A stretch of DNA of 45,154 bases from Candidatus Vogelbacteria bacterium (GCA_016201465.1 JACQCV010000022.1:1-45154), one strand, 5' to 3'; positions 6,257 through 44,068 are shown, counted from the first letter of the stretch. Notes: generated by a model not told the origin, from the sequence alone. Numbers and translations: made by a program.

Positions 6257-6261
6257 AATTT

Positions 6262-6288
6262 AAAAAAGAGCGCTCGCGCTCTTTTTTG
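6262..6288 (+). terminator. Rho-independent terminator after rplS
   Basis: aaaaaagagcgCTCGcgctctttttt: a GC stem flanked by an A-run and a T-run. Confidence 0.8.
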
Positions 6289-6331
6289 TTGGCAAAGTTT
6301 TCAATTTCATATATATTAGATGAACGAATAT

Positions 6332-6415
6332 GCGCGGGTGGCGAAATTGGTAGACGCACTACCTTGAGGTGGTAGCGGCCGCAAGGCTATGGAGGTTCAA
6401 ATCCTCTCCCGCGCA
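6332..6415 (+). tRNA. tRNA-Leu (anticodon GAG), class II long variable arm, CCA not encoded
   Basis: Folded by hand. Acceptor GCGCGGG/CCCGCGC, anticodon stem CTACC/GGTAG, and loop TTGAGGT with GAG at 6366-6368. T arm is GGAGG-TTCAAAT-CCTCT, discriminator is A. Confidence 0.9.
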
Positions 6416-6551
6416 CAGCGAGCGAAAAGAACGAGCACGGAGCGAGTCAACTGCTGGGCTCGCGTGGGATGATTTCAGATGGACTAGAAAAGTCAGCATA
6501 TGAGATTCTTGGGCTGGTTTTTTGCAATAACCGTTGAATCTATAGTATAAT

Positions 6552-15200: not shown

Positions 15201-18200
15201 CAAGTGGTAATTGGGTGTCTGTGGCTGTGTCTGGTAACGGTTCTAATCAGTGGGCACTTCAAAGTGGAGGAGTACCATATGTGACCATTGATAGAAGTCA
15301 TTGGACAAAGCCATTTTTAAGTGAACCGAATAGAAATTGGATTGCAGTGGCTATATCTCCGGATATTACTGGTTCAAAAGTAAGTGCGGCGGTAAATGGT
15401 GGTCAGGTTTTTCTATCCTCATGGGTGGGTACGATGTATTCTCCACCAACTTCCAACGATCCTGGTCGTTACTGGACATCGGTAGCAATGTCTGCTGATG
15501 GTTCTAGACAAATAGCAGTCGAATTTGGTGGCAATGTGTATACTTCTTCTGATTTTGCAAATTCGTGGATATCTAGAGGAAATTATAACGCATGGAAAGC
15601 CGTAGCAATGTCTGCTGATGGTTCGAGACAAATGGCGGTAACTAATAATGGCGGTGGTACTGGATACATATATACCTCTTTGGATTATGGTGTGAACTGG
15701 ACACAAAGAAATTCAAATAGAAACTGGGCATCCTCTGTTGCTATATCAGCAGACGGATCAAGACAGACGGCGGCCGTATTTGGAGGTCAAATTTATACAT
15801 CATCAGATTATGGTGTCACCTGGACGGCTAGGGATTCTGATAGAAATTGGCAGGCTGTGGCCATGTCTTCGGATGGGTCAAGACAGACGGCGGTTGAATC
15901 TGGCGGACAAATCTATACATCTTCAGATTACGGCGTGACGTGGACAGCGAGAGATTCTAGTCGTTCGTGGAACACAGTCGCAATGTCTTCGGATGGATCA
16001 AGGCAAACGGCCCTAGCAAATAGCGGACAAATCTATACATCTTCAGATTACGGCGTGACGTGGACAGCGAGGGGTCTCTCTGGTCCTTGGCAATTTGTAG
16101 CAATGTCTGCGGACGGCTTGAGACAGGCGGCAATACAAAATAATGGCAATACAAGTATTGGTGCGCTATATATTTCCAAGGATTATGGCACAACCTGGTC
16201 ACTAAGTGATTCAACTCACAAATGGAGTTTTGTCGCGATATCTGCTGATGGTTCGAGAATGACGGCTGGCGAGTTTAATAATGGACGCCTATATACCTCT
16301 CTTGCCGAAAAGAAGGTATTTACTGGCAGTATCATTAGAACTAGTACCATGACCAGCGCGTCTAGTGTACAAATTCAAGATAGCGGCGGTCATACTTTAC
16401 TACAGGCCACCGGAGATGGTAGAACACAATTTGTAGTAAAGCCAGGGGTTCCTGATGCATTTCAGCTGTTAACAAACTTCCAGAATAAGGTGATTCCAGT
16501 CTTTACAATTGGTACCACCGTTTCAGGCTCGACTATTAAGGGTAGAGCTGTGAGTAACCTCAGTGGTATGTCATTTGGAAATGATGCAATTGGTTACGAT
16601 GACTATTTGGACGGTGTACACGCCTCTACGACTGTTGGTGGTATAAATTATACTGCGTCATCAGGTGGTATTGCTGGTAATAATATTCATGTTGCAATTG
16701 TTGAGCCAGGTAGTGATGGTCAGTTGTCTGTTGGCAGGGACGGTTTAAACGTTACTGTCATTTTAGCAAAAGATAGTGGTGCTGTATCATCTACAATTGC
16801 TGATGTGGTAAGCGCCGTTAATGGAGACGATTCGGCAAGTGCAGTTATGTCTGCTATCGCAACCGGAGACGATTCAGTTATAGCTTCTGCTATCGCAACC
16901 TCAACTCTTTCTGGAGGAGAGACTGATGCCACTTTCAGCGGATTTTTGACTGTTGCCAAGACCAGCACTTTCACCGGCCTTGCCTCGTTTGTTGGAGGCG
17001 CCTCAACTACTAACTTGACAGTGGCATCAAATTCTACCTTAACTGGTAATGTTGGGGTTGGTGGAGATTTACACGTGGGATCTGTAAGAAATAATAGTTT
17101 TGAAACTGGCACGTTTTCTGGCTGGTCTGTTCTTTCTGGAAATGCATTTAGCCACCCAGTTGCGGGAACTTGTGCTAATCAAAATGCAGTTAGTGGTTAT
17201 GATGGTAAATATCTAATTAACTCTTATTGCGATGTTGATGGGAATGGTAACGATACGCTCACTGGAGTCATAAGATCCGACACCTTCGTTTTAACAGGTC
17301 CGAAGGTTAAATATCTTATTGGGGGAGGTAATGATATTACAAATTTAAAAGTTGAAATAGTTCGAGCGTCGGATGATGAGGTTATAAATGCCGATACTCA
17401 TACAGAAGGAGGTAGTGAACATTTAGATTCACATACCATTGATCTTTCCCCGTATGTAAATAATAGGGTTTATATAAAAATAACAGATAATGATCAGGGT
17501 GGTTGGGGCCACATCTTATTCGATGATTTTAGGCAGTTGGACAGTAATAATAATGTCATAGATAATGTTGGTCCAGTGTTTTCTGTTGGCAACCTCGGGC
17601 TCTATCTTGACAGTAGTAATAATTTTTCTATCGGTACAAGCACATTGTTTGCCTCTTCTAACGGCAATCTGGGTATAGGCACGACTACTCCTTCTAACAA
17701 ACTTGTTATGTCTGGAGGTAATTTCTTACAGGTGGCGAGTGGTAATCTGACCAGAAAGGGTTTTATAAGTTACGGTGCTGGTAATAGTGTTTACGTCAGC
17801 GGAAAATATGCATACATTGCTAATGGGGGAGATGATAGAGTTGTAGATATTTCAGATCCGACAAATCCGGTTGAGGTTACATCAGTGGGAGCTGGTGGTA
17901 ATGCTGCGGGGGTCTTTGTCGCCGGGAAGTATATGTATGTTGCTAACGGCGGTGGAGGTAATGGTGGTCTTGTTGTTTACGACGTCTCTGACTTATCAGT
18001 TGCACCAATACCTAAGATTAGTAATTTGCTTGATTTTGCTCAAAATGCAGAAAATGTTTTTGTGGCTGGTAAATATGCGTACGTAGCTTCGGGCCCAGGG
18101 CTTTCCATTATGGATGTCTCTGACCCATACAATTTAAAAGAGGTTTCTGGTACTGGTTTTGACTGTGGAGCCGCATCTCGCAAAGGTGTTTATGTTGACG

Positions 18201-19903
18201 GTAAGTTTGCTTATTTGACATCCGATGGGAATAATGATAGTTGCCCTGGAGGTAATAATAATGCTGGGCCCAAGTATTTGAAGTTTAATGTTTCTGATCC
18301 TCTACATCCACAACAGGTTGGTAATGCCAATCTTCCTGCTGCTGCCTTTGGGCTATATGCAAGTGGTAAGTATGTTTATGTTGCTGACGGAACCGCTGGT
18401 TTGCAGATTGTAAATGCTCTCGACGATAGTATTGTTGGTAGTTATGACACAAATGGAACATCCTACAACGTAAAAGTGGCAGGGAATTACGCTTATGTGG
18501 CGGACGGCTCAAATGGTCTTGTTGTTCTCGATGTATCTAATCCTGTCTCACCAGTTTTGGTTGGTACTTACACTTCTTCTGGTACGGTATATGACGTGTC
18601 TATAAGCGGTAAGTATGCGTACATTACTGGTACAGCAGGTCTTGAGACAATTGATATAAATGGTATAGATGTGCCGGCAATAAATACCGGGTCGCTATTT
18701 GCAAACAATTTGGGCATAGCTAATGATCTCGATGTTGCCAATAATCTGAATATCCATAATAGCTTGAACATTGGAATCGGAGGACTATATTCGACTGGAC
18801 CGTTTGCAATATCTGGTAATGCCACTTCAACTTTAATTGGAGCTTTGGCTGGTGCTTCGGGTGATCTTACTATTGCACGAGGCGGTGTGGGTAATTTAAT
18901 TCTCAACCCCTATGGTGGTAACGTTGGTATTGGTACTAACTCTCCAACACAACCTCTTGCTATGGCCTCCGGTGCTTATGTTACGGCTGGTGGCACATGG
19001 ACCAACGCCTCTAGTCGCGACTTGAAGGAGAACTTTACAACCCTAGACCCAGAAGCCGTACTGGAACAAATAAATCAATTAGCTATCCCGCGTTGGAACT
19101 ACAAAAACGAAGCAACAACAACTACGCACATAGGTCCGATAGCTCAAGATTTTTATTCAATATTCGGTCTAGGTGGTACCACTACTGGTTCGATATCTAT
19201 TTCGACAATAGATCCCGCTGGCGTTGCTCTTCTGGGGATTCAGGGTTTGTCCAAAAGGTTAAATGAGTTGGCAGTGAGTATCGGATCTACAACAGCCACT
19301 CTTTCGTCAGAAAAACTTGTTTATAGTAAACTGGAGGTTGATAGTGCGTCTATTAAATCAGCTGAAATATCTAATCTTAAGATATTGAACTCACTAATCA
19401 TGGAAGATCGGGTGACGGGTGATAGGTACTGTGTTTATATTGAGAACGGAGAGTGGGCAAAGTCTAGGGGTGATTGTGATATTAATGATAATAAAAATTC
19501 CAACAATATATCATCAATAATCTCAACCTCAGTCGAGACTGCTCCTTCTTTTGTCTCAGCTAGCACCGCATTTTCCACATCAACAGATAGAGAAGCTCCA
19601 GTTTTAACATTACTTGGTGATGCAACGTCTACTCTCAAGGTTGGTGATAATTTTGTTGATCCTGGGTCTGTGGTTACGGATAACGTGGATCAAAATCTGG
19701 GAGTAAAAGTTACTGGTTTGGTTGACACAAGTAAGGCCGGGATTTATACGCTCTATTATGATGCGATTGACAATGCGGGTAATAACGCCACACAGTTAAG
19801 TAGGGTAGTGACCATTGTGGATTCAACTCATTCGGATCTGTCCGGAATATTGTTACCTAATCCTAACGCCACTAGCTCCGTTGGTAGTGTTCTGGCGTGG
19901 TAA
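12296..19903 (+). CDS. Giant (2535 aa) multidomain surface protein: N-terminal anchor, tail-fibre-like Gly/Thr/Ser repeats, 14 BNR/Asp-box blades, lectin-like module, LVIVD repeats, peptidase-S74 intramolecular chaperone module, DUF5011-like Ig domain
   Basis: A single uninterrupted 7.6-kb ORF. Its domain signatures are listed as separate features below. Confidence 0.9.
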   Translation: MTPYYLNRKEGGRIVTLFSRLLILVGIFLLPIDIIFASSGVPKILSHQGRLLDSSANLLGGSGTNYCFRFSIYDAVSNGNKLWPGGTPSNMTVLVKNGIYNVDIGDTNVGGDSLSLDFNDDSYYLNIAIANSSNGSCAGVTSFETLSPRKHITSSGYAINSGLLNGQAASYYLDANNLNNFGQLFNSLLSGTTTLPNLVSLPNLTSIGTLSSLAVSGTITLGGHPLTFPSGSGSNGDMLTTNGNGSLSWTSLLNVSHGGTGLASYSTGDILYASDDSTLAALHKGGEGSVLKILGGVPVWGVDLTSGEGGGSSSWATTTDNLSIIENDPTQVVVVGSTATSSTGYIFEVSGAGINGKRALIPYASTTMVTATTASTTELIVSKILTLPNNSISDSALSSNVALLNGGQTFTTLTGSGALTITGLSSLNGGASTTNISASGTMWTGGLSTTTGGVINTQTKYQIAGVDILTSNTLGSGIVTSSLTTVGALTSGSIASSFGSINIGSNAITAGAGTFTSVTDSGLTSGRIPFATAGGQLTDNSRLAWNNSTNVLTVNGVLAISGMTTGSIPFATAGGAIGQNNSNFFWDNTNSRLGLGTTSPSQRLSVAGNALLSGDLTLANLTATGTITAPNFSGALTGNVSGSAATVTGASQFAITTLANLSTVGTLTSGSIGSGFGPINIGSSSPLTAGIGTFSSVTVNGTLAGNSLSMPTTENIAGVISTGSNQSLSSLNGAIYWGKNKLSSDIFDETNYNFGEIWQSSNSNRDWQAMALSSNGQYQTAVVNGGQIYTSSNSGSTWTARDSNRIWTSVTVSASGQYQTAVAITDQIYTSSDYGVTWTARDSDRNWQAVAMSSDGSRQTAVESGGQIYVSTNYGATWTANFSAPTVANWQAVAMSANGFYQTALVSNGQIYTSFNYGVTWTARDSGRNWSSVAMSSTGQYQTAAVFGGSIYMSTNYGINWYANTTAPSSGNWVSVAVSGNGSNQWALQSGGVPYVTIDRSHWTKPFLSEPNRNWIAVAISPDITGSKVSAAVNGGQVFLSSWVGTMYSPPTSNDPGRYWTSVAMSADGSRQIAVEFGGNVYTSSDFANSWISRGNYNAWKAVAMSADGSRQMAVTNNGGGTGYIYTSLDYGVNWTQRNSNRNWASSVAISADGSRQTAAVFGGQIYTSSDYGVTWTARDSDRNWQAVAMSSDGSRQTAVESGGQIYTSSDYGVTWTARDSSRSWNTVAMSSDGSRQTALANSGQIYTSSDYGVTWTARGLSGPWQFVAMSADGLRQAAIQNNGNTSIGALYISKDYGTTWSLSDSTHKWSFVAISADGSRMTAGEFNNGRLYTSLAEKKVFTGSIIRTSTMTSASSVQIQDSGGHTLLQATGDGRTQFVVKPGVPDAFQLLTNFQNKVIPVFTIGTTVSGSTIKGRAVSNLSGMSFGNDAIGYDDYLDGVHASTTVGGINYTASSGGIAGNNIHVAIVEPGSDGQLSVGRDGLNVTVILAKDSGAVSSTIADVVSAVNGDDSASAVMSAIATGDDSVIASAIATSTLSGGETDATFSGFLTVAKTSTFTGLASFVGGASTTNLTVASNSTLTGNVGVGGDLHVGSVRNNSFETGTFSGWSVLSGNAFSHPVAGTCANQNAVSGYDGKYLINSYCDVDGNGNDTLTGVIRSDTFVLTGPKVKYLIGGGNDITNLKVEIVRASDDEVINADTHTEGGSEHLDSHTIDLSPYVNNRVYIKITDNDQGGWGHILFDDFRQLDSNNNVIDNVGPVFSVGNLGLYLDSSNNFSIGTSTLFASSNGNLGIGTTTPSNKLVMSGGNFLQVASGNLTRKGFISYGAGNSVYVSGKYAYIANGGDDRVVDISDPTNPVEVTSVGAGGNAAGVFVAGKYMYVANGGGGNGGLVVYDVSDLSVAPIPKISNLLDFAQNAENVFVAGKYAYVASGPGLSIMDVSDPYNLKEVSGTGFDCGAASRKGVYVDGKFAYLTSDGNNDSCPGGNNNAGPKYLKFNVSDPLHPQQVGNANLPAAAFGLYASGKYVYVADGTAGLQIVNALDDSIVGSYDTNGTSYNVKVAGNYAYVADGSNGLVVLDVSNPVSPVLVGTYTSSGTVYDVSISGKYAYITGTAGLETIDINGIDVPAINTGSLFANNLGIANDLDVANNLNIHNSLNIGIGGLYSTGPFAISGNATSTLIGALAGASGDLTIARGGVGNLILNPYGGNVGIGTNSPTQPLAMASGAYVTAGGTWTNASSRDLKENFTTLDPEAVLEQINQLAIPRWNYKNEATTTTHIGPIAQDFYSIFGLGGTTTGSISISTIDPAGVALLGIQGLSKRLNELAVSIGSTTATLSSEKLVYSKLEVDSASIKSAEISNLKILNSLIMEDRVTGDRYCVYIENGEWAKSRGDCDINDNKNSNNISSIISTSVETAPSFVSASTAFSTSTDREAPVLTLLGDATSTLKVGDNFVDPGSVVTDNVDQNLGVKVTGLVDTSKAGIYTLYYDAIDNAGNNATQLSRVVTIVDSTHSDLSGILLPNPNATSSVGSVLAW
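14774..14898 (+). repeat. 125-bp exact intragenic direct repeat, copy 1 (partner at 15788..15912)
   Basis: caaatttatacatcatcagattatggtgtcacctggacgg...ggcggacaaat reads identically at both sites by eye. Confidence 0.85.
15788..15912 (+). repeat. 125-bp exact intragenic direct repeat, copy 2
   Basis: See copy 1. Both copies encode QIYTSSDYGVTWTARDSDRNWQAVAMSSDGSRQTAVESGGQI. Confidence 0.85.
15903..15951 (+). repeat. 49-bp exact intragenic repeat, copy 1 (partner at 16023..16071)
   Basis: gcggacaaatctatacatcttcagattacggcgtgacgtggacagcgag occurs at both sites. Confidence 0.85.
16023..16071 (+). repeat. 49-bp exact intragenic repeat, copy 2
   Basis: See copy 1. Confidence 0.85.
17770..18670 (+). 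other. Domain: LVIVD-type beta-propeller repeats
   Basis: Recurrent G-KYAYVA-G..GL-V-DVS-P units. An example is AGNYAYVADGSNGLVVLDVSNPVSPVLVG. Confidence 0.7.
19010..19290 (+). other. Domain: peptidase S74 / tail-spike intramolecular chaperone (auto-cleaving) module
   Basis: SSRDLKENFTTLDPEAVLEQINQLAIPRWNYKNEATTTTHIGPIAQDFYSIFGL...IDPAGVALLGIQGLSKRLNEL matches the S-DR-LKENI ... hiG-iAQe ... coiled-coil pattern of endosialidase/tail-fibre chaperone domains. Confidence 0.8.
19588..19825 (+). other. Domain: DUF5011-like bacterial Ig module at the extreme C-terminus
   Basis: REAPVLTLLGDATSTLKVGDNFVDPGSVVTDNVDQNLGVKVTGLVDTSKAGIYTLYYDAIDNAGNNATQLSRVVTI. Confidence 0.6.
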
Positions 19904-21106: not shown

Positions 21107-21143
21107 TGTCATCTAAGATGTTTTGTGTTATAGTCATCTAGCC

Positions 21144-21665
21144 ATGTTATATACAAAGAAAGGGGATGATGGATCTACGATCTTGTTTGATGCCAACAAG
21201 AGAATTTCAAAAACTTCACTTATCGTGGAGGTTTTGGGCGCTGTTGATGAACTGAATTCGCTCTTGGGTGTTTGTAAGGTGAAGGCTGATGATACAGAGA
21301 TAAAGAAATCTTTAGGGGAGCTTCAGCAAGATCTTTTTATCGCCCAAGCCGAGCTTGCTGGTGCCGAACCGAGAATTAAATTAGATAAGATCACAAGATT
21401 AGAGGGGGATATTAACAATATTGAGAAGCAATTGCCGGTCATCAAGAGTTTTTTTGTTGCTGGTGGTACGGAGTTGTCGGCGCTTCTAGATTTTGCTAGA
21501 GCTGTATCGAGAAGGGTAGAGAGGGTGGCGGTGAGACTATATGATGACGGCGCTATGAATAAAGATTTGTATTCGTATTTGAATAGGATCTCATCATATC
21601 TATATGCGCTAGCTAGACTTACTAACCAGAAATCTGGTATAAAGGAGGTCAGACCGCATTATTGA
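21144..21665 (+). CDS. ATP:cob(I)alamin adenosyltransferase, PduO type
   Basis: MLYTKKGDDGSTILFDANKRISKTSLIVEVLGAVDELNSLLG is the canonical PduO/MMAB N-terminus. I prefer the ATG at 21144 (M8 of the track ORF). Confidence 0.85.
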   Translation: MLYTKKGDDGSTILFDANKRISKTSLIVEVLGAVDELNSLLGVCKVKADDTEIKKSLGELQQDLFIAQAELAGAEPRIKLDKITRLEGDINNIEKQLPVIKSFFVAGGTELSALLDFARAVSRRVERVAVRLYDDGAMNKDLYSYLNRISSYLYALARLTNQKSGIKEVRPHY

Positions 21666-21706
21666 TTTTGTGGTCTAGAATTTGTTAAGCCTTTAACAAA
21701 TTAGAT

Positions 21707-21778
21707 GGTGGCTATGGTGTAGCGGTAGCACACGAGCTTGTGGAGCTCTTAGTCTGGGTTCAACTCCCAGTAGCCACC
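21707..21778 (+). tRNA. tRNA-His (anticodon GUG) with encoded G-1; CCA not encoded
   Basis: Folded by hand. G-1 (21707) pairs with C73 (21778). Acceptor GTGGCTA/TAGCCAC and D stem GTGT/GCAC. Anticodon loop TTGTGGA has GTG at 21740-21742. T arm is CTGGG-TTCAACT-CCCAG. Confidence 0.85.
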
Positions 21779-22108
21779 CCTTGAAAGACTACTAGCTAGT
21801 TCTAGTAGCAAGTTGTAAGGGGAACGTAAGGTAAACTCTAAGTTTTTTCCATTTACTGTTGGGTTCTGAAGTATGTAATTCAAGAATTGCCTCTTTTCAC
21901 TTGGTTCAGAACTCTCAAATATAGACTTAGCTCTACGAGCGATATAAAACACTGTAGCTACCGTGGTTTGATAATCATGGTCAGCTTTTGTGTGTTCTTC
22001 TAGTTCTATGTTCAAGAGCTGTATCTTGTCGTGGTAGTCCTGGTGCCTTTTGTCATACATGTCCTTAGTAATACGCCATAAGAAAGTTATTTTTCTAAAT
22101 AAAAGCCT
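21749..22108 (-). pseudogene. C-terminal remnant of a large serine recombinase, abutting or overlapping the 3' end of tRNA-His
   Basis: ITKDMYDKRHQDYHDKIQLLNIELEEHTKADHDYQ...ARRAKSIFESSEPSEKRQFLNYILQNPTVNGKNLEFTLRSPYNLL matches the coiled-coil/C-terminal tail pattern of recombinase-family proteins. No catalytic N-terminal domain is present. The first 25 codons of the track ORF are just antisense translation of the 260-bp repeat. Confidence 0.5.
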
Positions 22109-22109
22109 T

Positions 22110-22369
22110 AAAATAAGCCTTTTCTCACCAACCCATTGACAAAACATATAATAGTATGCTATACTTTCGCTAGATAAAAACAATAAAAAGCTAGCTCTTC
22201 ACATCAAATAAAAGTTCAAAAACCTTGATGCGCATCCCAACGTGGAGGCATCATATACCTCGATTAAATTCGAGGGGAAGGAGCTGTCATCATGACGGTA
22301 CATGAGACTGTCGCCGACGGCAAACTTGGGAACGAGGAGCTTGGTCAATTCACCCGCAAGGTGGACGAA
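22110..22369 (+). repeat. 260-bp direct repeat, left copy: promoter, ~125-nt leader and the first 26 codons of the 204-aa ORF
   Basis: Near-identical to 43808..44068. Differences are about 10 substitutions or indels, clustered just after the -10. Confidence 0.9.
22136..22165 (+). promoter_or_regulatory. Consensus promoter TTGACA, 18 nt spacer, TATACT
   Basis: TTGACA at 22136-22141 and TATACT at 22160-22165. Downstream leader hairpins are tgatgc...gcatca and cctcga-ttaaat-tcgagg, just before the SD GGAAGGAG. Confidence 0.6.
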
Positions 22370-22906
22370 ATCAAGCGACGCCTCAACGAAGGAACGATTA
22401 CCCTCTCTTGGGCACTGAATGAGCTTCAGCGCATCATCGAGGGTCGTCAGTCCGTGAGCGACCTGGTCATCGACTTCGACGCCACGCCCATGATTCCGTC
22501 GGGCTTGGAAATCCGAGAGTCCGACCAAATCGCATCCCGCTTCAAGGGCAAGTGGACCTTCAATGCGAAGGCACTCGCTCTCTACCTCTCCAAGAAGCAG
22601 AAACAGGGCAAGCTCATCAAGGGCCATGACCTCAAGGACGACCTCGACGGCGAGAAGGTCATGGGAGCACAGCTTCTCGACTTCTACCTGAAGAACCCGC
22701 ACCTCATCCCCGACGAATGGAAGGGGAAGGCCACGTTCTTCTGGGGAACCATCTACCGCGGCTCGTTCGGGGACCTCTGCGTCCGCTACCTGTACTGGAG
22801 TGGCAAGGCGTGGGACTCGGACTACAACTGGCTGGACAACAACTTCAACGATACGAACCCCGCGTTGCTCGCTAATCTCTTCATTTCTCCTCTGGCTTTT
22901 TGCTAG
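22292..22906 (+). CDS. Candidate DGR variable (target) protein; GC-rich 204-aa ORF with an Asn/Asp/Tyr/Trp-rich C-terminus
   Basis: Line 22401-22460 is 36/60 G+C. The C-terminus is FFWGTIYRGSFGDLCVRYLYWSGKAWDSDYNWLDNNFNDTNPALL. Position is next to avd and RT. The last ~12 codons (from ~22872) are AT-rich and are antisense to the avd 3' end. Confidence 0.5.
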   Translation: MTVHETVADGKLGNEELGQFTRKVDEIKRRLNEGTITLSWALNELQRIIEGRQSVSDLVIDFDATPMIPSGLEIRESDQIASRFKGKWTFNAKALALYLSKKQKQGKLIKGHDLKDDLDGEKVMGAQLLDFYLKNPHLIPDEWKGKATFFWGTIYRGSFGDLCVRYLYWSGKAWDSDYNWLDNNFNDTNPALLANLFISPLAFC

Positions 22907-23317
22907 GGGAGTTTTGTTTACTCTGGGCTATGTCGAGAGGCTTAACTTTAACCTCCTCAACCTTTCTTGTAACCTGCCCATTCCACCCTCCAAGCATCTT
23001 TCCTATCTCATTGAGTGGCATGGAAACAGCAATATATTTATTGTTATCTAAAGACTTTGTTTCCCAGAGGACCATGAGTAATATCTTTAATGTATCTGTC
23101 TTCCTAATAGCTATTCTAATCCAAGGTTGTTTCTCCTCTTTAGATAAGAAGCTGGCAATCGCTATAGATTCGATAATTTCTATGAATAAGGCATCAATTC
23201 TTTGTCCCAGAGAATGTCTATGGTCCTTAGGTAATACCTGGTAGTATCCATACCATAAGATATATACACTCTTAACCCTTTGTAGCAGGGGTAGAATCGG
23301 GGGGGGGGTAACTTCAT
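22881..23317 (-). CDS. avd: DGR accessory variability determinant (Avd, four-helix-bundle family), interrupted by a frameshift in a C10 tract
   Basis: Hand translation of the minus strand gives ATG(23317) AAG TTA C10. The long frame after the tract reads ILPLLQRVKSVYILWYGYYQVLPKDHRHSLGQRIDALFIEIIESIAIASFLSKEEKQPWIRIAIRKTDTLKILLMVLWETKSLDNNKYIAVSMPLNEIGKMLGGWNGQVTRK. This is Avd-like, including the EIGxxLGGW signature. The span is 437 nt, which is not a multiple of 3. C11 or C8 would restore a 145-aa ORF. Confidence 0.7.
23299..23308. repeat. G10/C10 homopolymer inside the avd 5' end, 22 nt upstream of the RT start codon
   Basis: cgg gggggggg ta, counted directly. It is the longest G/C run I saw in this AT-rich window. 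Confidence 0.95.
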
Positions 23318-23329
23318 GGTTTTATTTAT

Positions 23330-24343
23330 ATGACCAACAGAATCAAATTTATTCATAACTACGATACTATCATTTCTCTCGAAAATTTGCTTGAAGCCTG
23401 GAAAGAGTTTCGAAACAACAAAAAATCTCGAAAAGATGTCCAAGAATTTGAAAGAAACTTGATGGAGAATATATTATTGCTCCACAAAGAACTCCTAACA
23501 AAAACCTATAAACATTCTTCTTATGAAGCTTTTAACATTTCTGACCCTAAACCAAGGAGGATACACAAGGCGAAGGTCCGAGATAGACTACTTCACCACG
23601 CCATATACAGAAAACTGTATCCCTTCTTTGATAAGACATTTATAGCTGACTCTTACTCGTGTCGTTTCGAGAAGGGGACCCATAAGGCTTTAGAAAGATT
23701 TCATTCTTTTTCTCAAAAGGTTTCAGGTAATAGGACCAAAGCCGTCTGGGTTCTCAAGTGTGACATACGAAAATTCTTTGCTTCAATAGACCAAAGTATT
23801 CTCATCGGAATCGTTAAGGAGTATGTATCAGATCAAAATATCACCTGGCTTATTTCAGAAATCGTTTCTAGTTTTCATTCGACGAAGGAAGGCGTCGGCT
23901 TGCCCTTAGGGAATTTAACCTCCCAACTTCTCGTAAATGTATACATGAATAAATTTGACCAATTTATGAAGCATAGGGTTAAGGCCAAATATTACATTCG
24001 TTATGCCGACGACTTTGTGATTATGTCTCAAGATAGAAAGTGGCTTGAAGAAGTATTAATTAAAATCAAGAAGTTTCTACATGAGAAGCTTAAATTAGAA
24101 TTACATCCGAACAAAGTCTCAATCGAAACACTATCTTCGGGGGTAGATTTTCTTGGTTGGGTTAACTTTCCAGACCATAGAGTTATGAGAACAACGACTA
24201 AGAAGAGGATGTTTAGAAATATTAAGACTAGAGAAGGGAAGCCCGAGGTTGTTCAATCCTATCTTGGACTCTTGAGTCATGGAAATGGGAAGAGGTTGCA
24301 GGATGGGATAGCTAAATTAAATACACAAGTTGGTAATAAGTGA
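23330..24343 (+). CDS. Diversity-generating retroelement reverse transcriptase
   Basis: Motifs SLENLLEAWKEF, DPKPRRIHKAKVRDRLLHHAIY, SYSCRFEKGTHKAL, LKCDIRKFFASIDQ and FLGW. GLPLGNLTSQLLVNVYMN carries the DGR-specific [LI]GxxxSQ (LGNLTSQ at 23906-23926). YIRYADDFVI has YADD at 24002-24013. Confidence 0.9.
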   Translation: MTNRIKFIHNYDTIISLENLLEAWKEFRNNKKSRKDVQEFERNLMENILLLHKELLTKTYKHSSYEAFNISDPKPRRIHKAKVRDRLLHHAIYRKLYPFFDKTFIADSYSCRFEKGTHKALERFHSFSQKVSGNRTKAVWVLKCDIRKFFASIDQSILIGIVKEYVSDQNITWLISEIVSSFHSTKEGVGLPLGNLTSQLLVNVYMNKFDQFMKHRVKAKYYIRYADDFVIMSQDRKWLEEVLIKIKKFLHEKLKLELHPNKVSIETLSSGVDFLGWVNFPDHRVMRTTTKKRMFRNIKTREGKPEVVQSYLGLLSHGNGKRLQDGIAKLNTQVGNK

Positions 24344-24355
24344 TAGAATGACGGT

Positions 24356-24865
24356 ATGAAAAACCCAGAAAAATTTACCCCCTACATTAAAGAAGAAGCC
24401 AAGAAAATAATTGAAGAGGTTAAGGAAACATTAGCTAAGGACTTCGGTCTCACGGAATTTACCCAAGTTGAGTTTTTTGAACTTCAACACGCACTACAAG
24501 AAGTTATGGAAGTTTATCCTGTGAAGATAAAACCTGTAACAGCCCAAGAAAAGATAGAGTATGTCCACTCAAAAAGTGTTTTTGGTTCTACCAAACTTGA
24601 AGTCATTGACCGCTGGCTTAGCAGAACTCATCACGTGAGAATAATAGATGTTCCTGTCCGTTATGTATTAACCGACCAGAAGACAGATGAACAATTTATG
24701 TTTAATGGTAAAGACTGTTCTTCAGGAAACAATACCTTGAAACAAGCCTGGCAGAAAAAATTTGAACTTCAAAAACTTGGTCATAGTGGAGTCATTTCTG
24801 GAGGTATTACAGAAGAGTTTAAGGAGATGCTTAGAGAGGACTCCAAGAAAAGGGAGATTATTTAA
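24356..24865 (+). CDS. Hypothetical protein, 12 nt downstream of the RT stop
   Basis: 169-aa ORF. I recognise no family. Confidence 0.5.
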   Translation: MKNPEKFTPYIKEEAKKIIEEVKETLAKDFGLTEFTQVEFFELQHALQEVMEVYPVKIKPVTAQEKIEYVHSKSVFGSTKLEVIDRWLSRTHHVRIIDVPVRYVLTDQKTDEQFMFNGKDCSSGNNTLKQAWQKKFELQKLGHSGVISGGITEEFKEMLREDSKKREII

Positions 24866-24940
24866 TTGACTTCTTGATTTTCTAATGTTAGTTTAGCATC
24901 CAGAACTCTCGTTTTTTGATAGACCAAAGGAGGTCTGAGG

Positions 24941-25498
24941 ATGACAGCTCAAAAGTTGCCAGTTTTTCCTAATTGGTTTCCATATAACGATATGCTTCTT
25001 GATGGACATATGAAAGTTGATGGGCACGAAGGTGTGAAGTCTAGATGTTGGGAATGGAACTATCGGGGGCCAGTATTGCTCTATAACTCCCTGAGAACTG
25101 CTAAGCCTGCAGTTAAGGCGTACGATTATACGAACAGTTCTGAAAACCATAAGGTAATCGTTGGAGTTGGTGAGTTGGTTGAAGTAAGAGGGTTTACGGT
25201 GGACGAAGCCGCACAGATGCTTGCAAACTTCAACAATATTTCACTCGACAAGATTAAGATTGCCCTTCGAAATATCAAGAGAAAGATGCCGAGCTACAGG
25301 CCCGAAGAAATCATCTACAACTTCTTTCAATTCGGGCCGTACATCGCTCCATTCAGAACAGGCTTCTTCTTCAAGAACCTGAGACGCTTCGACAAGCCAG
25401 TTTCTTTCAATTGGCCTGCTGGCCCAATCAAACCTATTTTTACTCAAGTTGTTCCTGGTTCGGAACTTGGTAAGCAGCTCAAACGAGCTGGGTTCTAA
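24941..25498 (+). CDS. Hypothetical protein (possibly an ASCH/PUA-like fold)
   Basis: SD AAGGAGG upstream. CWEWNYRGPVLLYNS ... IVGVGELVEVRGF is reminiscent of ASCH domains, but this is a weak call. Confidence 0.45.
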   Translation: MTAQKLPVFPNWFPYNDMLLDGHMKVDGHEGVKSRCWEWNYRGPVLLYNSLRTAKPAVKAYDYTNSSENHKVIVGVGELVEVRGFTVDEAAQMLANFNNISLDKIKIALRNIKRKMPSYRPEEIIYNFFQFGPYIAPFRTGFFFKNLRRFDKPVSFNWPAGPIKPIFTQVVPGSELGKQLKRAGF

Positions 25499-25515
25499 GA
25501 CAAGGAGGAAGCACA

Positions 25516-25989
25516 ATGTCTGATAGTTCAAAAGTTCTTGTAGCTGAAGCCAAATACACTCCAACGTCACTACTGGATATTATCTACGAGAAATGTGGCC
25601 ACGTGGGGCCTAGTTCTGCAGTTCTCGATTTCTATGGAAGAATAGTTGACTTCAAGATTCCCGAGAGAATTTACCAAGAAAAGAATGTGGAAGTTGGTTC
25701 TCCCATAACTATTGACGACCATTCTTGTCCCAAATGTGACTTTGAGAAATTCAAGATTGTTGTCATCCGTTGCGCCGTTTGTGGAGAGGGAATTTGCCCA
25801 GGTGATGAAATAGCTCTTTACGCAAAGGAAAGTAAGGCATTGAATCTTTCTATCGCCACAAGGGTTGGTGAAGAGATTGTCGGTTGTCTAAAGCAAGGCT
25901 GTGGCCCTGCTGCTGCCCTTGCTGGCAGATGGACAGAGAATGGATTTGAGCCCTTTGACTTTTCAAAAATGGTAATTCAACCATGGTAA
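25516..25989 (+). CDS. Hypothetical Cys-rich (zinc-ribbon-like) protein
   Basis: SD AAGGAGGAAG upstream. CPKCDFEKF...CAVCGEGICPGD gives paired CxxC motifs. Confidence 0.5.
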   Translation: MSDSSKVLVAEAKYTPTSLLDIIYEKCGHVGPSSAVLDFYGRIVDFKIPERIYQEKNVEVGSPITIDDHSCPKCDFEKFKIVVIRCAVCGEGICPGDEIALYAKESKALNLSIATRVGEEIVGCLKQGCGPAAALAGRWTENGFEPFDFSKMVIQPW

Positions 25990-26004
25990 TATTGTAAACG
26001 TTTT

Positions 26005-26036
26005 GCCCTGCATATAGCTGTAGGGCTTTTCTTTTG
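26005..26036 (+). terminator. Rho-independent terminator closing the RT-led gene string
   Basis: gccctgca-tatagc-tgtagggc followed by TTTTCTTTT. Confidence 0.7.
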
Positions 26037-26217
26037 CTTAACTCTTTGAATTTTATAAAACACTAACAAAAGACATACTTAAATATTCAAATTCTCTCTT
26101 TATCTGAGCCCAATTTACAGTTCTGAACTTGTCCGACAAGCGACCCCAACGAAAATCGAACCGATAATATCTTTTGTCTAGGCTGTAAAACCAGTTTGAA
26201 CTTGGTATACTTCTGGT

Positions 26218-26520
26218 ATGAAAAATAAAATATCTATAGGTGTCATTACATTTGCCCTTATTCTTTTTAATGGCGGGATTATTTCTGCCAACAAAGCTCT
26301 GGCCTATGAGGAAAGAATAGGTCAAGCTTCTTCAGCCAGGGAAGTAGTAGAGCAAACTGAAGAGAAGGTTCTTGGTTCTGAAAAACACTCGGAGCTTGAA
26401 AAAATGGAACCTAGTATAGATTCCTCAATTAAGAGAAACGGTCCTGTTGTATTAGTAGGAATAAGTCTTCTCTTGTTTGCAACTACTTTGTACTTGAAAT
26501 TCAAGAAGAAAAAAGTTTAA
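26218..26520 (+). CDS. Small exported protein with signal peptide and C-terminal TM plus Lys tail
   Basis: ISIGVITFALILFNGGIISANKALA at the N-terminus and VVLVGISLLLFATTLYLKFKKKKV at the C-terminus. Confidence 0.5.
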   Translation: MKNKISIGVITFALILFNGGIISANKALAYEERIGQASSAREVVEQTEEKVLGSEKHSELEKMEPSIDSSIKRNGPVVLVGISLLLFATTLYLKFKKKKV

Positions 26521-26554: not shown

Positions 26555-26727
26555 CTAAACCACAGTGTTAATTAGGTTGGGGTAAAACGTCGGAATATAT
26601 ATTGTTGCATCATTCCTTCGCTCAAAAATAGTTCTAACATCCTCTACCACGGCACCCAGCGTTATTTTTCTTAAATAAATCGTTATCGTGTTTAGACTTT
26701 TTAGTTCTAACCTGGTAAGCTTTTGGT
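26555..26727. repeat. Inter-cassette repeat, copy 1 (~155 bp, runs up to the ATG of the cupin gene)
   Basis: 26574-26727 is almost identical to 27745-27898. The minus strand carries a 62-aa ORF (26555..26743) ending ...GAVVEDVRTIFERRNDATIYIPTFYPNLINTVV*. Confidence 0.85.
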
Positions 26728-27033
26728 ATGGAAAATTTATCAAACGATGCTGTAAGTATAGCTCCCCATTTACACAAGGTTATATTGGAAAATGATAAGG
26801 TTCGTGTACTTGATGTACTAGTTAAACCTGGGGACAAAGCAGAGATGCACACTCATCCCGCTAACGTCGGAATCGTTACACAAGCAGGTACATTAAATAT
26901 TACTTTTGAAGATGGAACGAATAAAGAAGTTAAACTTGAAAAGGGAGCAATCAACTTTTCTGGCCCCAACAAACATATGGTTGAAAATAAAGGGACAGAG
27001 GAGGTGCGAGTTATACAGGTGGAGTTAAAATAA
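26728..27033 (+). CDS. Cupin-domain protein
   Basis: GDKAEMHTHPANVGIVTQAG...FSGPNKHMVENKGTEEVRVIQVE shows cupin_2-type motifs. Confidence 0.7.
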   Translation: MENLSNDAVSIAPHLHKVILENDKVRVLDVLVKPGDKAEMHTHPANVGIVTQAGTLNITFEDGTNKEVKLEKGAINFSGPNKHMVENKGTEEVRVIQVELK

Positions 27034-27045
27034 GTTTAAGTTTGT

Positions 27046-27714
27046 ATGAAAAAATTTTCTGACTTAAAAGTTGTTATTGAAAACCCAAAAGGAAGCTACA
27101 AATCATTTGAGGTTGAGGGCGACCCTGTTTGGGAGCAGTACCCCCTTAAGGGAGTAACTTATCCTGTAGACTATGGCTATATCGAAGGATATATGGGTGA
27201 AGACGGGGCGGAATTAGATATATTCGTAGGAACTGGAAATAAATTCGGCCATATAAAAATCTGGAGGACGGATGTTCCAGAGGAGACTAAATTTTATGCA
27301 AAGCTTATGGAAGGAGAGCTTGCTAGGGTTATTGAAATATTTAAACCAGTATTAATTTCTCAAACTGACTTGAGCATGAATGAATTTATGGATGTAGTTA
27401 GTAAATTTAAGACGAATAACTTTCTTTACCGTTATACCTCTAATGGAGAAGGCATATGGTCCGCGGGAAAAAGGTTTTTACCTGAAGAATTAATTAGTGA
27501 AGCGTGGGAACAACGGAAATGGATGCCGAAGCCCAAACTTCCCGAGGGTGAGTATCAATTTTTTCTGACTGAAAAGGGTAAACAAAAGTATGACGAGACG
27601 TTGCTTAACGTTCATAAAAAATATTTAACTGATATTAAATTTGAAAAGATAGAGTCATTAACGATAGGGGATATTGTTTATCAAGATGAGTGGCAGGTGG
27701 TTACAAAGAAGTAA
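27046..27714 (+). CDS. Inorganic-pyrophosphatase-like N-terminal domain fused to an unknown C-terminal domain
   Basis: VIENPKGSYKSFEVEGD...YPVDYGYIEGYMGEDGAELDIFVG resembles the family I PPase core. The C-terminal ~100 aa are not recognised. Confidence 0.55.
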   Translation: MKKFSDLKVVIENPKGSYKSFEVEGDPVWEQYPLKGVTYPVDYGYIEGYMGEDGAELDIFVGTGNKFGHIKIWRTDVPEETKFYAKLMEGELARVIEIFKPVLISQTDLSMNEFMDVVSKFKTNNFLYRYTSNGEGIWSAGKRFLPEELISEAWEQRKWMPKPKLPEGEYQFFLTEKGKQKYDETLLNVHKKYLTDIKFEKIESLTIGDIVYQDEWQVVTKK

Positions 27715-27725
27715 TGTTATAGGGA

Positions 27726-27898
27726 CTAAACAATAGCGTATTGCAGGGTGGGGTAAAACGTCGGAATATATATTGTTGCATCATTCCTTCGCTCAAAAAT
27801 AGTTCTAACATCCTCTACCACGGCACCCAGCGTTATTTTTCTTAAATAAATCGTTATCGTGTTTAGACTTTTTAGTTCTAACCTGATAGACTTTTCGT
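27726..27898. repeat. Inter-cassette repeat, copy 2 (runs up to the ATG of the methyltransferase gene)
   Basis: See copy 1. The minus-strand tail reads ...FYPTLQYAIV*, with its stop at 27726-27728. That is the same offset (26 nt before GGTAAAA) as in copies 1 and 3. Confidence 0.85.
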
Positions 27899-28729
27899 AT
27901 GAAAGATTATAAGTACGACAAAATCACTCCAACTGCAGATTTGATTTCCTACTTCAGGACTTTTTCTGATATTCCGTACACTAAAGAGATTGCCGAAATC
28001 ACGGGTGCTGAAGAAATAGCGAGGAAGATTTTAGGCGAACATTTCAAAGATAGTATGTTTCTAGCTCCGATATCAGAAGTGCGCTATAAGAGGATAGATA
28101 TTCAAGCACAAAAATATAAAAACATTCTTGAGGTGGCTGTCGGGCGTTCCCCAAGAGATTTAATTTTTACAGAAAACCCAGAAATCAGTTATGTCGCAAC
28201 AGATTTATCAGATTCACTTAATAATCACGAAACGATTATTAAAGAGTTAATGGCTAGACATAAACTCAAAAGACCAAATTTATATTTTGCATCAGTCAAT
28301 GCGTTAGAGAGTGTGGATTTCAATAAAGCATCTGATTTATTACCAGAAGGTCCTGTCGCAATAATCTCAGAAGGTTTTATGGTTTATTTATCCAAGGAAG
28401 AGAAACAGATATTTCTGAAAAATGTTTTAGAAATCCTTATTAAAAGAGGAGGATGTTTGATAACCTCGGATATTAATTTTACAAAAAGAAGTAATATTGC
28501 AGCTGGTATTATGGATTCAATTTCCTCTACTGCTGGTAGAGATATGAGAGATTTGAGTTTTGATAATGCTGAGGACGCTAAAAACTTTCTATCTGAAGCG
28601 GGCTTTGATTCAGAGATTGTTTCCGACCCAATTGACGTGGTTTCTGTTAAAGAACTGAAATTAGAAAATGACCCTCAGACAGAGCGAGTTATGAGTTTTC
28701 CAGTCTGGGTCCTTACACCTAGGAAATAG
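27899..28729 (+). CDS. Class I SAM-dependent methyltransferase (leucine carboxyl/O-methyltransferase-like)
   Basis: ILEVAVGRSPRDL, VATDLSD and ISEGFMVYLSKEE indicate a Rossmann methyltransferase pattern. Confidence 0.6.
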   Translation: MKDYKYDKITPTADLISYFRTFSDIPYTKEIAEITGAEEIARKILGEHFKDSMFLAPISEVRYKRIDIQAQKYKNILEVAVGRSPRDLIFTENPEISYVATDLSDSLNNHETIIKELMARHKLKRPNLYFASVNALESVDFNKASDLLPEGPVAIISEGFMVYLSKEEKQIFLKNVLEILIKRGGCLITSDINFTKRSNIAAGIMDSISSTAGRDMRDLSFDNAEDAKNFLSEAGFDSEIVSDPIDVVSVKELKLENDPQTERVMSFPVWVLTPRK

Positions 28730-28811
28730 TGAATTGTGGGGTAGGGTAAAAGGCAGGAATATAGATTGTCGCATCATTTCTTCTCTCAAAAATAGTTCTG
28801 ATATCCTCTAC
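28719..28811. repeat. Inter-cassette repeat, copy 3 (diverged, partial)
   Basis: It aligns to copies 1 and 2 over ~70 nt with 9 substitutions. On the minus strand it translates as GAVVEDIRTIFERRNDATIYIPAFYPTPQFTIS*. Confidence 0.8.
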
Positions 28812-28901
28812 CACGGCACCCTAGTAGGAATTTTGCTCAATATGTCAATCATGATAACAATTTTAATCATTTTAGCAACCCAATATTAGAAAAAGTATAC
28901 A

Positions 28902-28929
28902 TTGACTTTCGATATCTATAGTATATACT
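28902..28929 (+). promoter_or_regulatory. Consensus promoter TTGACT, 16 nt spacer, TATACT for the toxin-antitoxin pair
   Basis: TTGACT at 28902-28907 and TATACT at 28924-28929. The ATG at 28938 is only ~9 nt downstream, so the mRNA would be nearly leaderless. Confidence 0.55.
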
Positions 28930-28937
28930 TGAGATAT

Positions 28938-29213
28938 ATGAAAACAATGATTAATGTTAAAACAGATAGCGAACTTAAAAAAGCAGTCCAAGAAGTGGCT
29001 AGTGATTTAGGATTACCCCTTGGAACCATCATTAACCATTACTTGCGCGAACTTGTTTATGAAAGGCGGGTAGTTTTTGCAGATCATCCGATGCCGAATT
29101 CTAAAACACGAAAAATAATAGCTCAAGCCCTTCAGGATATAAAATACGGGCAAAATCTTTCAACCTCTTTTGATACAGCAAAAGGGGCTGTCGGTTATTT
29201 GAAATCGCTCTAA
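28938..29213 (+). CDS. RelB/DinJ-family antitoxin
   Basis: MINVKTDSELKKAVQEVASDLGLPLGTIINHYLRELV is a ribbon-helix-helix DinJ-like N-terminus. The start is at 28938 or 28947. Confidence 0.7.
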   Translation: MKTMINVKTDSELKKAVQEVASDLGLPLGTIINHYLRELVYERRVVFADHPMPNSKTRKIIAQALQDIKYGQNLSTSFDTAKGAVGYLKSL

Positions 29214-29218
29214 TTTTT

Positions 29219-29479
29219 ATGGTAATTAATTACCATCGTAGTTTTTTAAGAGATTTCAAAAGATTGACCACAAAAATCAAAGATAGGTTTTATGAAAGAC
29301 AGGAGATGTTTATGATCGAACATTTTAATACTTTATTAAATAACCACTCACTTAAGGGAAAATATAAAAATTGTCGAAGTATAAATATAACAGGAGACTA
29401 TCGGGCAATATATACAATAAATAGCGATTCATGTATTTTTATTAGAATTGGAACCCATGACGAACTTTACGGGAGATAG
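29219..29479 (+). CDS. YafQ/RelE-family mRNA interferase toxin
   Basis: 86 aa, with LNNHSLKGKYKNCRSINITGDYRAIY...IRIGTHDELY. It lies directly downstream of the antitoxin. Confidence 0.7.
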   Translation: MVINYHRSFLRDFKRLTTKIKDRFYERQEMFMIEHFNTLLNNHSLKGKYKNCRSINITGDYRAIYTINSDSCIFIRIGTHDELYGR

Positions 29480-43795: not shown

Positions 43796-43807
43796 AAGGT
43801 ATCTTGT

Positions 43808-44068
43808 AAAATAAGCCTTTTCTCACCAACCCATTGACAAAACATCTAATAGTATTCTATACTCTGTTCAGATAAAAATAATAAAAAGCTAGCTCTTCAC
43901 ATCAAATAAAAGTTCAAAAAACCTTGATGCGCATCCCAACGTGGAGGCATCATATACCTCGATTAAATTCGAGGGGAAGGAGCTGTCACCATGACGGTAC
44001 ATGAGACTGTCGCCGACGGCAAACTTGGGAACGAGGAGCTTGGTCAATTCACCCGCAAGGTGGACGAA
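43808..44068 (+). repeat. 260-bp direct repeat, right copy
   Basis: See the left copy at 22110..22369. Confidence 0.9.
43834..43863 (+). promoter_or_regulatory. Second copy of the TTGACA, 18 nt spacer, TATACT promoter
   Basis: TTGACA at 43834-43839 and TATACT at 43858-43863. Confidence 0.55.

Follow-up and report, generated by a model that had tools for sequence, protein, structure and literature searches.

Repeats of a Candidatus Vogelbacteria cassette array as probable 3' fragments of large serine recombinase genes displaced beside tRNA-His

We analysed a 45,154-nt contig of a Candidatus Vogelbacteria bacterium (GCA_016201465.1 JACQCV010000022.1; hereafter the window, with coordinates counted from its first letter), in which small genes are separated by copies of a repeat that is open on the minus strand. 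Sequence comparison makes it likely that the repeat peptide (WGAVVEDVRTIFERRNDATIYIP...) comes from the C-terminus of a large serine recombinase (LSR), the gene of which extends across its own attachment site, attP. On this reading the repeats would be the last ~33 codons of such genes, left as scars of serial insertion beside tRNA-His, a probable insertion hotspot across bacteria of the Candidate Phyla Radiation (CPR). We named the repeat copies int(C) fragments, for orphan 3' integrase fragments.

Recombinase genes that continue into the repeat

The peptide forms the end of intact recombinase genes in other loci, the decisive ones, L095 and L094, coming from a scan of metagenomes. Locus L095 contains a complete 568-aa LSR (ORF 2291-3997; ORF, open reading frame) with the Resolvase (PF00239), Recombinase (PF07508) and Zn_ribbon_recom (PF13408) domains, which ends ...LIHTWGAVVEDVRTVYEQRNEVTIYLPQF... 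and a stop and is followed by two cassettes, a second copy of the ~100-nt repeat core and tRNA-His. The LSR of L094 ends ...LILEWGAVVEDVRTVFERRNDATIYIPAFYHTL and a stop, and is convergent with a GNAT cassette gene. In L001, L003 and L056 an LSR gene lies at the tRNA-His end of units of 8-10 kb; the L056 protein carries the same three domains (PF00239, PF07508, PF13408), and in L003 and L056 the LSR ORF overlaps tRNA-His by 8-12 nt. The LSR frame is the frame of the repeat peptide in L056 (...LLLRWG/G and stop, slash at the junction), L001 (...LILRWG...) and L064 (...NSCWG/DYRESNPN). Searching with a chimeric query, in which an LSR C-terminus was joined to the repeat peptide, returned LSR C-terminal regions that run in frame into the peptide, with P0186 ending ...LELTSSPLRGAVVEDVRTIFERRNDATIYIPDMQSIAILA and P0160 and P0183 being diverged, together with many ORFs that end ...WG[GA]YRESNP..HK.QC, which is antisense tRNA-His. 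Further in-frame fusions of an LSR to the tail were found in L096, L123 and L135 and in proteins P0231, P0191 and P0224. In an AlphaFold model of P0231, built on a 32-sequence alignment (mean predicted local distance difference test score, pLDDT, 70.9), a coiled coil is confidently predicted, and the tail is a helix predicted with low confidence (pLDDT ~40-60).

These genes occur with two kinds of ending, native or tRNA-derived. At least 17 LSR ORFs end ...WG[GAD]YRESNPN..HKPE and a stop, which is a translation of antisense tRNA-His. Among 56 homologous LSR 3' ends, 17 were classed as tRNA-antisense tails and four as native tails (L094, L095, L123 and L135); some stop right after WG, and the unclassified ones include a truncated (L096) and a diverged (L124) tail. 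The break point is a pair of Trp-Gly codons, TGG GGT, equal to the reverse complement of the ...C-CCA end of tRNA-His, and the conservation of the repeat starts sharply at the same TGGGGT motif in all copies. Related LSRs (L128-L134, L142, L149 and L166; P0194, P0205, P0240, P0252 and P0259) end in ..WLRGQDSNLEP.., ..RPDLNRRPP.. or ..RDSNPQP..., tails that look like T-arms of other tRNAs translated in antisense. An ORF that runs into a tRNA gene may therefore be a general trait of these CPR LSRs and not one limited to tRNA-His.

The window itself holds a matched pair of gene halves. Its minus-strand ORF 21749-22183, which spans only the region after the zinc ribbon, ends ...LELASSLSRG/GYWELNPD and a stop within tRNA-His. 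It has 129 homologues, including P0230 (Zn_ribbon_recom, PF13408) and P0210 (named site-specific recombinase at its source), and shares 75% identity with the LSR-derived part of P0186 over 80 aa. The sequences of 35 of these 129 homologues were read, and what follows ...SP(N/T)W(L/G) in them is a tRNA-antisense or a native tail, the native ones including a type A-like (WLRVVDAIRTYYQYNTEYFFIP) and a type B (WLRVLDEFRTLNWRSIERELSGLS) sequence. The type-B tail is also the end of the window's minus-strand ORF 26053-26325 (...FRWGRLSDKFRTVNWAQIKREFEYLSMSFVSVL and stop), and the corresponding fragment, 26053-26148, sits 4.4 kb from the remnant at the tRNA-His end. Neither the remnant nor this fourth fragment, which differs in type from the other three, had been seen in the original prediction. 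Its statement that no integrase is adjacent was mistaken: the ORF abutting tRNA-His is the 3' remnant of an LSR gene, and the repeats correspond to the missing 3' end of such genes.

We rejoined the remnant and the type-B fragment in silico at their shared GGGGT. The product aligned without gaps across the junction to contiguous proteins, at 75% over 121 aa for P0192 (E 1e-68) and 68% over 124 aa for P0210. Because the rejoined halves match contiguous homologues gap-free, the element 21781-26148, which includes a reverse transcriptase of the type found in diversity-generating retroelements (DGRs), appears to have the halves of a single integrase 3' region on its two sides, the layout that marks an attachment site lying inside an integrase gene. 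It is the newest unit and has retained both gene halves, and the three type-A copies are older orphans without a matching body.

The three type-A copies described in the original prediction are present as claimed (Table 1). A repeat search of the window aligned copies 1 and 2 at 92% over 183 nt (26555-26737 / 27726-27908), a match that extends past the ATGs at 26728 and 27899, and recovered a three-copy family (26561-26657 / 27732-27828 / 28725-28821) with 86-100% identity over 97 nt; a sequence alignment concurs. Within the conserved 26 codons we reproduced the synonymous changes CGA>AGA, AGG>AGA, GCA>GCG, ATA>ATC and CCG>CCT, with CCC>CCT in addition, as well as the conservative replacements V>I and T>A, and the minus-strand frames of all three copies stop at the identical offset.

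The proposed coding constraint on the minus strand was likewise borne out, well above chance level, when 121 unique copies drawn from 83 CPR loci were compared. The first two codon positions hardly vary and four-fold third positions reach ~1.8 bits of entropy (positions 1/2/3: Pro 0.07/0.00/1.82; Thr 0.37/0.87/1.86; Ala 1.13/0.49/1.73 bits), with ~0.8 bit at the third position of two-fold codons, so that column entropy tracks the degeneracy of the genetic code. Stops interrupt this frame in 12 of the 121 copies, compared with 101-121 copies in four of the other frames and 20 in the fifth; an antisense coding frame with a shared wobble phase was rejected, having stops in 107/121. Differences from the consensus codon number 591 synonymous and 467 non-synonymous, visibly decayed copies included. 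Four-fold wobble entropy averages ~1.0 bit in the first 9 codons and ~1.8 bits in later ones, and this difference suggests that the ~27 nt adjoining the crossover are also an overlapping DNA site, presumably an integrase half-site (P' arm).

Arrays anchored at tRNA-His across CPR bacteria

The repeat is widespread and largely confined to CPR genomes. A protein search with the 62-aa ORF of the window returned 15 short ORFs of 34-108 aa that have a common core, [GC]AVVE[DE]VRTIFE[RK][RK]NDATIYIP, and unrelated N-termini. In a GTDB scan with one genome per species we found 201 places, one on a contig labelled Gammaproteobacteria and nearly all on contigs titled CPR/Patescibacteria, in lineages that include Saccharibacteria, Paceibacterota, Parcu-, Adler-, Nomura-, Wolfe-, Kaiser-, Taylor-, Campbell- and Gracilibacteria. 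An nhmmer profile identified 129 copies in 83 sources, 29 of which hold 2-9 copies, always in the same orientation and spaced 0.45-3 kb. An exhaustive hidden Markov model (HMM) search of 1.84 billion representative proteins gave 254 matches; the best 150 of them are all 26-205 aa long, carry the peptide at or near the C-terminus in nearly all cases and reveal no independent parent family. The idea that the repeat is the 3' end of an ordinary host gene was dismissed, the word-based and exhaustive HMM searches having yielded no long parent except LSRs. An origin as a displaced LSR tail would explain the start-less, highly conserved mini-ORFs that are called in hundreds of CPR genomes and metagenomes.

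The arrays are anchored at a tRNA gene that remains intact. In 40 loci tRNA-His (GTG) lies on the opposite strand 270-2000 nt past the last copy, with its 3' end facing the array, and the tRNA-His of the window has the same position and orientation relative to its array. In all of these loci the intact tRNA is at one end and the displaced repeats, in one orientation, are at the distal ends of the units. Beyond tRNA-His, other loci carry genes for a PduO-type adenosyltransferase, tRNA-Leu, L19 and RluA, and the window shows the same gene order (5022-6416, 21123-21780, then the island). The suggestion of the original prediction that the repeat was multiplied by successive insertions at one site is supported.

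A leader of ~70 nt, termed L, runs from the core to the next ATG. In a profile search it adjoined a core 10 times and tRNA-His itself five times, and therefore the repeating unit, in tRNA orientation, is [tRNA-His or core]-L-ATG-cargo. A leader that follows either the core or tRNA-His is as expected for the chromosomal arm of the chromosomal attachment site, attB, and L would fit such an arm plus a leader. It is conserved in different genomes and could conceivably also act as the initiation region lacking a Shine-Dalgarno sequence that was raised in the original prediction. The 21-nt tail that had been noted before the gene at 26218 does exist and is the 3' end of a leader copy (26149-26217) that recurs in other genomes.

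Cassette genes are antisense to the peptide in 117 of 154 cases, with stop codons that abut or overlap the peptide stop. The 150 largest cassette proteins fall into 99 Pfam families, including NUDIX, GNAT, methyltransferases, Fic, APH, RhuM, GrpB, NYN and YafQ/RelB. The 3' side of tRNA-His would be a superphylum-wide hotspot for accessory genes such as DGRs, toxin-antitoxin pairs, GNAT, NUDIX, methyltransferases and Fic, and int(C) fragments could provide a simple sequence marker for CPR island boundaries that standard island finders miss. The system as a whole is of interest to specialists in mobile elements and recombinases and of use in CPR genome annotation.

Two further sequence features were observed near cores and tRNA-His. 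An element of ~150-190 nt (L025 2209-2356; also in L004, L014, L021, L030, L044, L052 and L057) precedes some of the cores and in other cases immediately adjoins tRNA-His, with three tandem copies next to tRNA-His in L018 (10870-11390). Its 5' end (GGGTGCCTA...GAGAGAATCG) resembles the antisense tRNA-His 3' half and its 3' end (..TTCAAATCC..GCAAGC..GCTTGCTTAGGCACCCCA) a sense tRNA-His-like 3' end, after which a palindromic terminator follows; the element has no Rfam match. Directly after the core in L001 (10140-10260), TTTGGYC occurs three times and TTAGGG six times at ~10-11-nt spacing, resembling iterons or arm-type protein-binding sites.

A gene-splitting insertion model, its alternatives and known relatives

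In the mechanism that we propose, the attP crossover would lie inside the integrase ORF, ~30-35 codons before its stop, probably at the TGG GGT (Trp-Gly) codons. Integration would take place at the 3' end of tRNA-His, since ...CACC-C-CCA gives TGGGGTG when reverse-complemented. The body of the integrase gene would remain beside the tRNA, its ORF now ending after a few antisense-tRNA codons, and the last ~33 codons would be moved to the far end of the element without a start codon or promoter. The protein constraint on the fragment would then stem from selection within the working integrase of the donor element, and loss of the tail would presumably alter or abolish integrase activity, an effect that has been argued for SSV-type integrases and shown for IntP of phage Mx8. 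Repeated insertion at one tRNA-His site would push older units outward, the outcome being a one-orientation array of [int(C) fragment]-[~70-nt leader]-[cargo]. Small L-type units without an LSR would either move in trans or remain after deletions. LSRs are major tools of genome engineering, and a natural C-terminal module that is removed and restored by integration could be a new handle on their directionality.

Several observations weigh against this mechanism. Most copies, including the three of type A in the window, have no LSR body within 10 kb, and the cassettes between copies measure only 0.5-2 kb, a regularity that decay of 8-10 kb elements does not obviously produce. To our knowledge, LSR sites are not expected to permit repeat integration at a used site, and serial accretion therefore needs explanation. 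The contexts of L095 and L094 are chromosomal tandems, not episomes, and no free circular form was recovered, the peptide being absent from the IMG/VR viral contigs; on the same result a viral origin of the peptide was rejected. The likeness between the core and antisense tRNA-His is confined to ~8 nt, TGGGGTG(G/C)C, and is only marginally above controls beyond that (similarity score 4.26 vs 3.10 +/- 1.46 for shuffled controls). Finally, the junction of one LSR clade shows a +1 frame shift relative to the tail, namely in L003, in L040, where the LSR directly abuts the core, and in the L064 remnant. Fusion of LSR to peptide was accordingly rejected for L003 and L040, although the in-frame state is seen in L056, L001, L064, L094 and L095. 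The intact L064 homologue has kept the frame, and compared with it L003 carries one extra nucleotide three codons ahead of the junction; one-nucleotide indels could explain the +1 junction of this clade. At the three junctions themselves (L003 9225-9245, L040 9980-10020 and L064 9874-10001) decay, assembly error or frameshifting could be at work.

A bolder interpretation, which we regard as unlikely, is that the locus is a cassette-capture platform driven by a serine recombinase and working like an integron. Small units of the form [leader L]-[1-2 genes]-[int(C) fragment] would carry in L a mimic of the chromosomal arm downstream of tRNA-His, so that each insertion would regenerate the tRNA-His/L target and arrays could grow without limit. 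A resident orphan int(C) might then be kept to restore the full-length frame of a self-truncated integrase upstream; in L095 it is the first core of the downstream cassette array, itself ending at tRNA-His, that completes the intact 568-aa LSR. The system would in that case have a built-in switch of directionality or activity, thrown by losing and regaining the 33-aa tail.

Less probable still is that the arrays arose chiefly because the ~100-nt cores and ~70-nt leaders recombined homologously or were duplicated locally, for instance after DNA uptake, the cores being integrase 3' ends that serve as portable homology only. Third-position identity is 0.74 within arrays vs 0.58 between genomes, so that local processes may have contributed; the 183-nt match of window copies 1 and 2 includes the leader, and most cassettes lack any recombinase. 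However, copies within an array are still clearly distinct, conservation begins at the TGGGGT boundary throughout, and LSR genes lie precisely at the tRNA junction. Moreover, the newest element of the window has exactly complementary gene halves, the signature of conservative site-specific insertion.

The original prediction had offered the repeat as either a conserved small minus-strand ORF or a gene 3' end. The second option held, since the LSR tail is in frame with recombinase bodies, and the first did not, as a conserved start is missing. That the repeat is an independent 31-62-aa minus-strand gene, such as a regulator or toxin for each cassette, translated from its own start, is very improbable. 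The frame is open in 109/121 copies and under purifying selection, an NTG codon directly precedes the Gly codon in about half of the copies, and gene callers predict ORFs of 26-205 aa here in many metagenomes. Yet the codon before Gly (TTG 26, TGG 24, CTG 15, ATG 11, GTG 9, TAG 5, AGG 5) can be TGG, AGG or even TAG, which is not a conserved start, and in many single-copy loci an in-frame stop lies 0-5 codons upstream of the peptide. Upstream sequence is unrelated among copies and often a terminator-like hairpin, the few long open frames there are nonsense, and any conserved upstream sequence is LSR body in the same frame.

The original prediction had also named a structured RNA as an alternative. 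Searched at gathering threshold and at E <= 10, Rfam returned only two tRNAs, both elsewhere in the window, and none at the repeats; single-sequence folding was no better than that of shuffled controls (z = +0.59 for DNA and -0.15 for RNA), and RNAalifold predicted 0 pairs in 36 diverse copies. An RNA element was rejected on these results. An integron-type attC or other structured DNA or RNA element whose coding look is incidental is scarcely credible: it would suit an array in which unrelated promoter-proximal genes all point the same way and each repeat directly adjoins the stop codon before it, and it would suit integron-like cargo (GNAT, NUDIX, methyltransferases, APH, toxin-antitoxin), but apart from the folding results inverted repeats are lacking in copy 2 and none that are relevant occur in the other copies, entropy mirrors genetic-code degeneracy, and the recombinase linked to the repeats is of the serine type, not IntI. 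Contrary to the integron-style array of the original prediction, no attC-like hairpin was found, and the 25 commonest Pfam families of the 150 cassette proteins include Resolvase but no tyrosine integrase. A Pfam search of the window ORFs between 20555 and 33727 revealed no gene for an IntI tyrosine integrase.

Further identities for the repeat were considered and set aside. A tmRNA tag or tRNA-like gene was negative in ARAGORN and Rfam, and no tRNA model matched at the repeats as it might for a displaced tRNA gene fragment. As a DGR template or variable repeat the copies fail in that their substitutions are mixed (C>A, G>A, A>G, A>C, G>T and more) and not adenine-specific, no copy lies within a long ORF and no template repeat was found near the reverse transcriptase. 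An Xer/dif-like reading was dropped: GAATATATATT, which resembles the centre of B. subtilis dif, sits where the wobble positions of the core vary freely.

The closest functional parallel is the archaeal "suicidal" integrase of the SSV type. In SSV1/2, pXQ1, pTN3 and pT26-2, as here, the integrase ORF contains the recombination site, which corresponds to a tRNA gene, integration splits the ORF into fragments that flank the element, and elements become trapped and accumulate beside tRNA genes; when intact, the integrase gene serves as a directionality factor for itself (PMC8371274). These integrases are tyrosine recombinases (Phage_integr_3) and were stated in that 2021 review to be exclusively archaeal (PMC8371274), whereas an LSR in CPR bacteria is involved here, which would extend the idea of a gene-splitting integrase to LSRs in bacteria. 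The CPR LSR resembles an SSV-type integrase in its mode of action, but its serine recombinase domains and CPR bacterial hosts place it outside that family; furthermore, only its last ~33 codons are split off and its identity to the tRNA covers ~8 nt. SSV-type genes are split near the 5' end, and their shared att segment is 40-50 bp of exact tRNA sequence.

Among bacterial systems, the myxophage Mx8 has a tRNA gene as its target and a tyrosine recombinase, IntP, as its integrase. As in the LSR genes, the int coding sequence of this myxophage includes attP, and upon integration the gene is recombined so that it acquires another 3' end and its protein altered properties (PMC6070905); that Mx8 and SSV integrases extend across attP was also pointed out in the paper on Islander (PMC4383910). 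Mx8 is a single phage, unlike the superphylum-wide family described here. We know of no description of arrays of orphan 3' fragments with small cassettes for Mx8.

The Islander model places an island at an intact tRNA 3' end with a displaced repeat at its distal end, tandem accretion leading to arrays (PMC4383910). The CPR arrays agree in that the tRNA is kept intact, each unit has a displaced repeat at its distal end and units stand in tandem, and differ in that the displaced repeat is an integrase-gene fragment and the enzyme a serine recombinase, in place of a tRNA fragment and a tyrosine integrase. Serine integrases were not known to target tRNA genes according to the same 2015 paper, a statement that the present case contradicts (PMC4383910). 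With integrons the arrays share one orientation, short unrelated cassettes, a conserved repeat between them and similar accessory genes; here, however, the repeat consists of coding sequence, a tRNA gene takes the place of attI as the anchor, and IntI and an attC hairpin were not found. Our literature search, incomplete in coverage, returned no paper on this element, on CPR cassette arrays at tRNA-His or on attP-spanning LSR genes.

Feature layout of the window

The features of the array are listed in Table 1. For the 276-aa protein between copies 2 and 3 the original prediction had proposed a methyltransferase, a label for which no Pfam match was obtained. The RelB-like / YafQ-ParE pair past the last fragment is either the oldest cassette or the original flank, and similar RelB/YafQ pairs lie within the arrays of L038, L039 and L080.

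Table 1. Coordinates of the tRNA-His-anchored array and its components in the window.
Feature	Position	Strand	Basis or remark
tRNA-His (GTG)	21708-21780	+	ARAGORN and Rfam; chromosomal anchor, 3' end is the probable island attachment site
LSR 3' remnant, int(N)-side half	21749-22183	-	Translation; enters antisense tRNA-His
Cargo of tRNA-proximal element: 204-aa, 114-aa Avd-like, DGR-type reverse transcriptase (23330-24343), three unknown ORFs	22292-25989	+	Pfam RVT_1
Type-B int(C) fragment, WGRLSDKFRTVNWAQIKREFEYLSMSFVSVL and stop	26053-26148	-	ORF listing, sequence; probable missing 3' end of remnant 21749-22183
Leader L copy 0, directly before ATG of 100-aa cassette gene	26149-26217	+	blastn matches to L061 and L010 leaders; leader HMM at 26152-26220
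Cassette gene, 100-aa predicted membrane or secreted protein, without Pfam family	26218-26520	+	
Type-A int(C) copy 1, (L)GAVVEDVRTIFERRNDATIYIPTFYPNLINTVV and stop	26555-26660	-	
Leader L copy 1, up to cupin ATG	26661-26727	+	
Cassette cargo: cupin (26728-27033, Cupin_2) and inorganic-pyrophosphatase-like (27046-27714, InPase)	26728-27714	+	Pfam
Type-A int(C) copy 2, ...GAVVEDVRTIFERRNDATIYIPTFYPTLQYAIV and stop; end reads ...TFYPTLQYAIV and stop	27726-27831	-	
Leader L copy 2, up to ATG at 27899	27832-27898	+	
Cassette cargo, 276-aa protein	27899-28729	+	Stop overlaps copy 3 by 11 nt
Type-A int(C) copy 3, most distal; GAVVEDIRTIFERRNDATIYIPAFYPTPQFTIS and stop, with TAG stop immediately upstream	28719-28824	-	
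RelB-like / YafQ-ParE toxin-antitoxin pair, past last fragment	28902-29479	+	Pfam

The cargo of the newest element resembles a DGR. Its module (22292-24343) comprises the 204-aa ORF, the 114-aa Avd-like ORF (22900-23244) and the reverse transcriptase, which has the DGR-type LGNLTSQ motif. Homologues of the reverse transcriptase lie in or adjoining core arrays in nine loci, and homologues of the 114-aa protein beside cores in four. Because no template/variable repeat pair was found for it in the window, the module may be decayed. A repeat of ~260 nt (22109-22369 / 43807-44068, 93-99% identical) takes in the first 26 codons of the 204-aa ORF together with the sequence upstream of it; in the copy at 43807-44068 the frame breaks into stops after these 26 codons and an amine-oxidase-like ORF follows.

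Two further repeats lie inside long ORFs of the window. A 2535-aa ORF (12296-19903), located in the interval from tRNA-Leu to the adenosyltransferase gene that other loci have in a much shorter form, contains many 120-nt (40-aa) repeats with an IYTSSDYGVTW-type motif that is BNR/Asp-box-like. A 141-nt direct repeat (40089-40229 / 41100-41240, 89% identical) is found inside a 971-aa ORF (38836-41751) and could be an internal domain repeat or a DGR-type pair.

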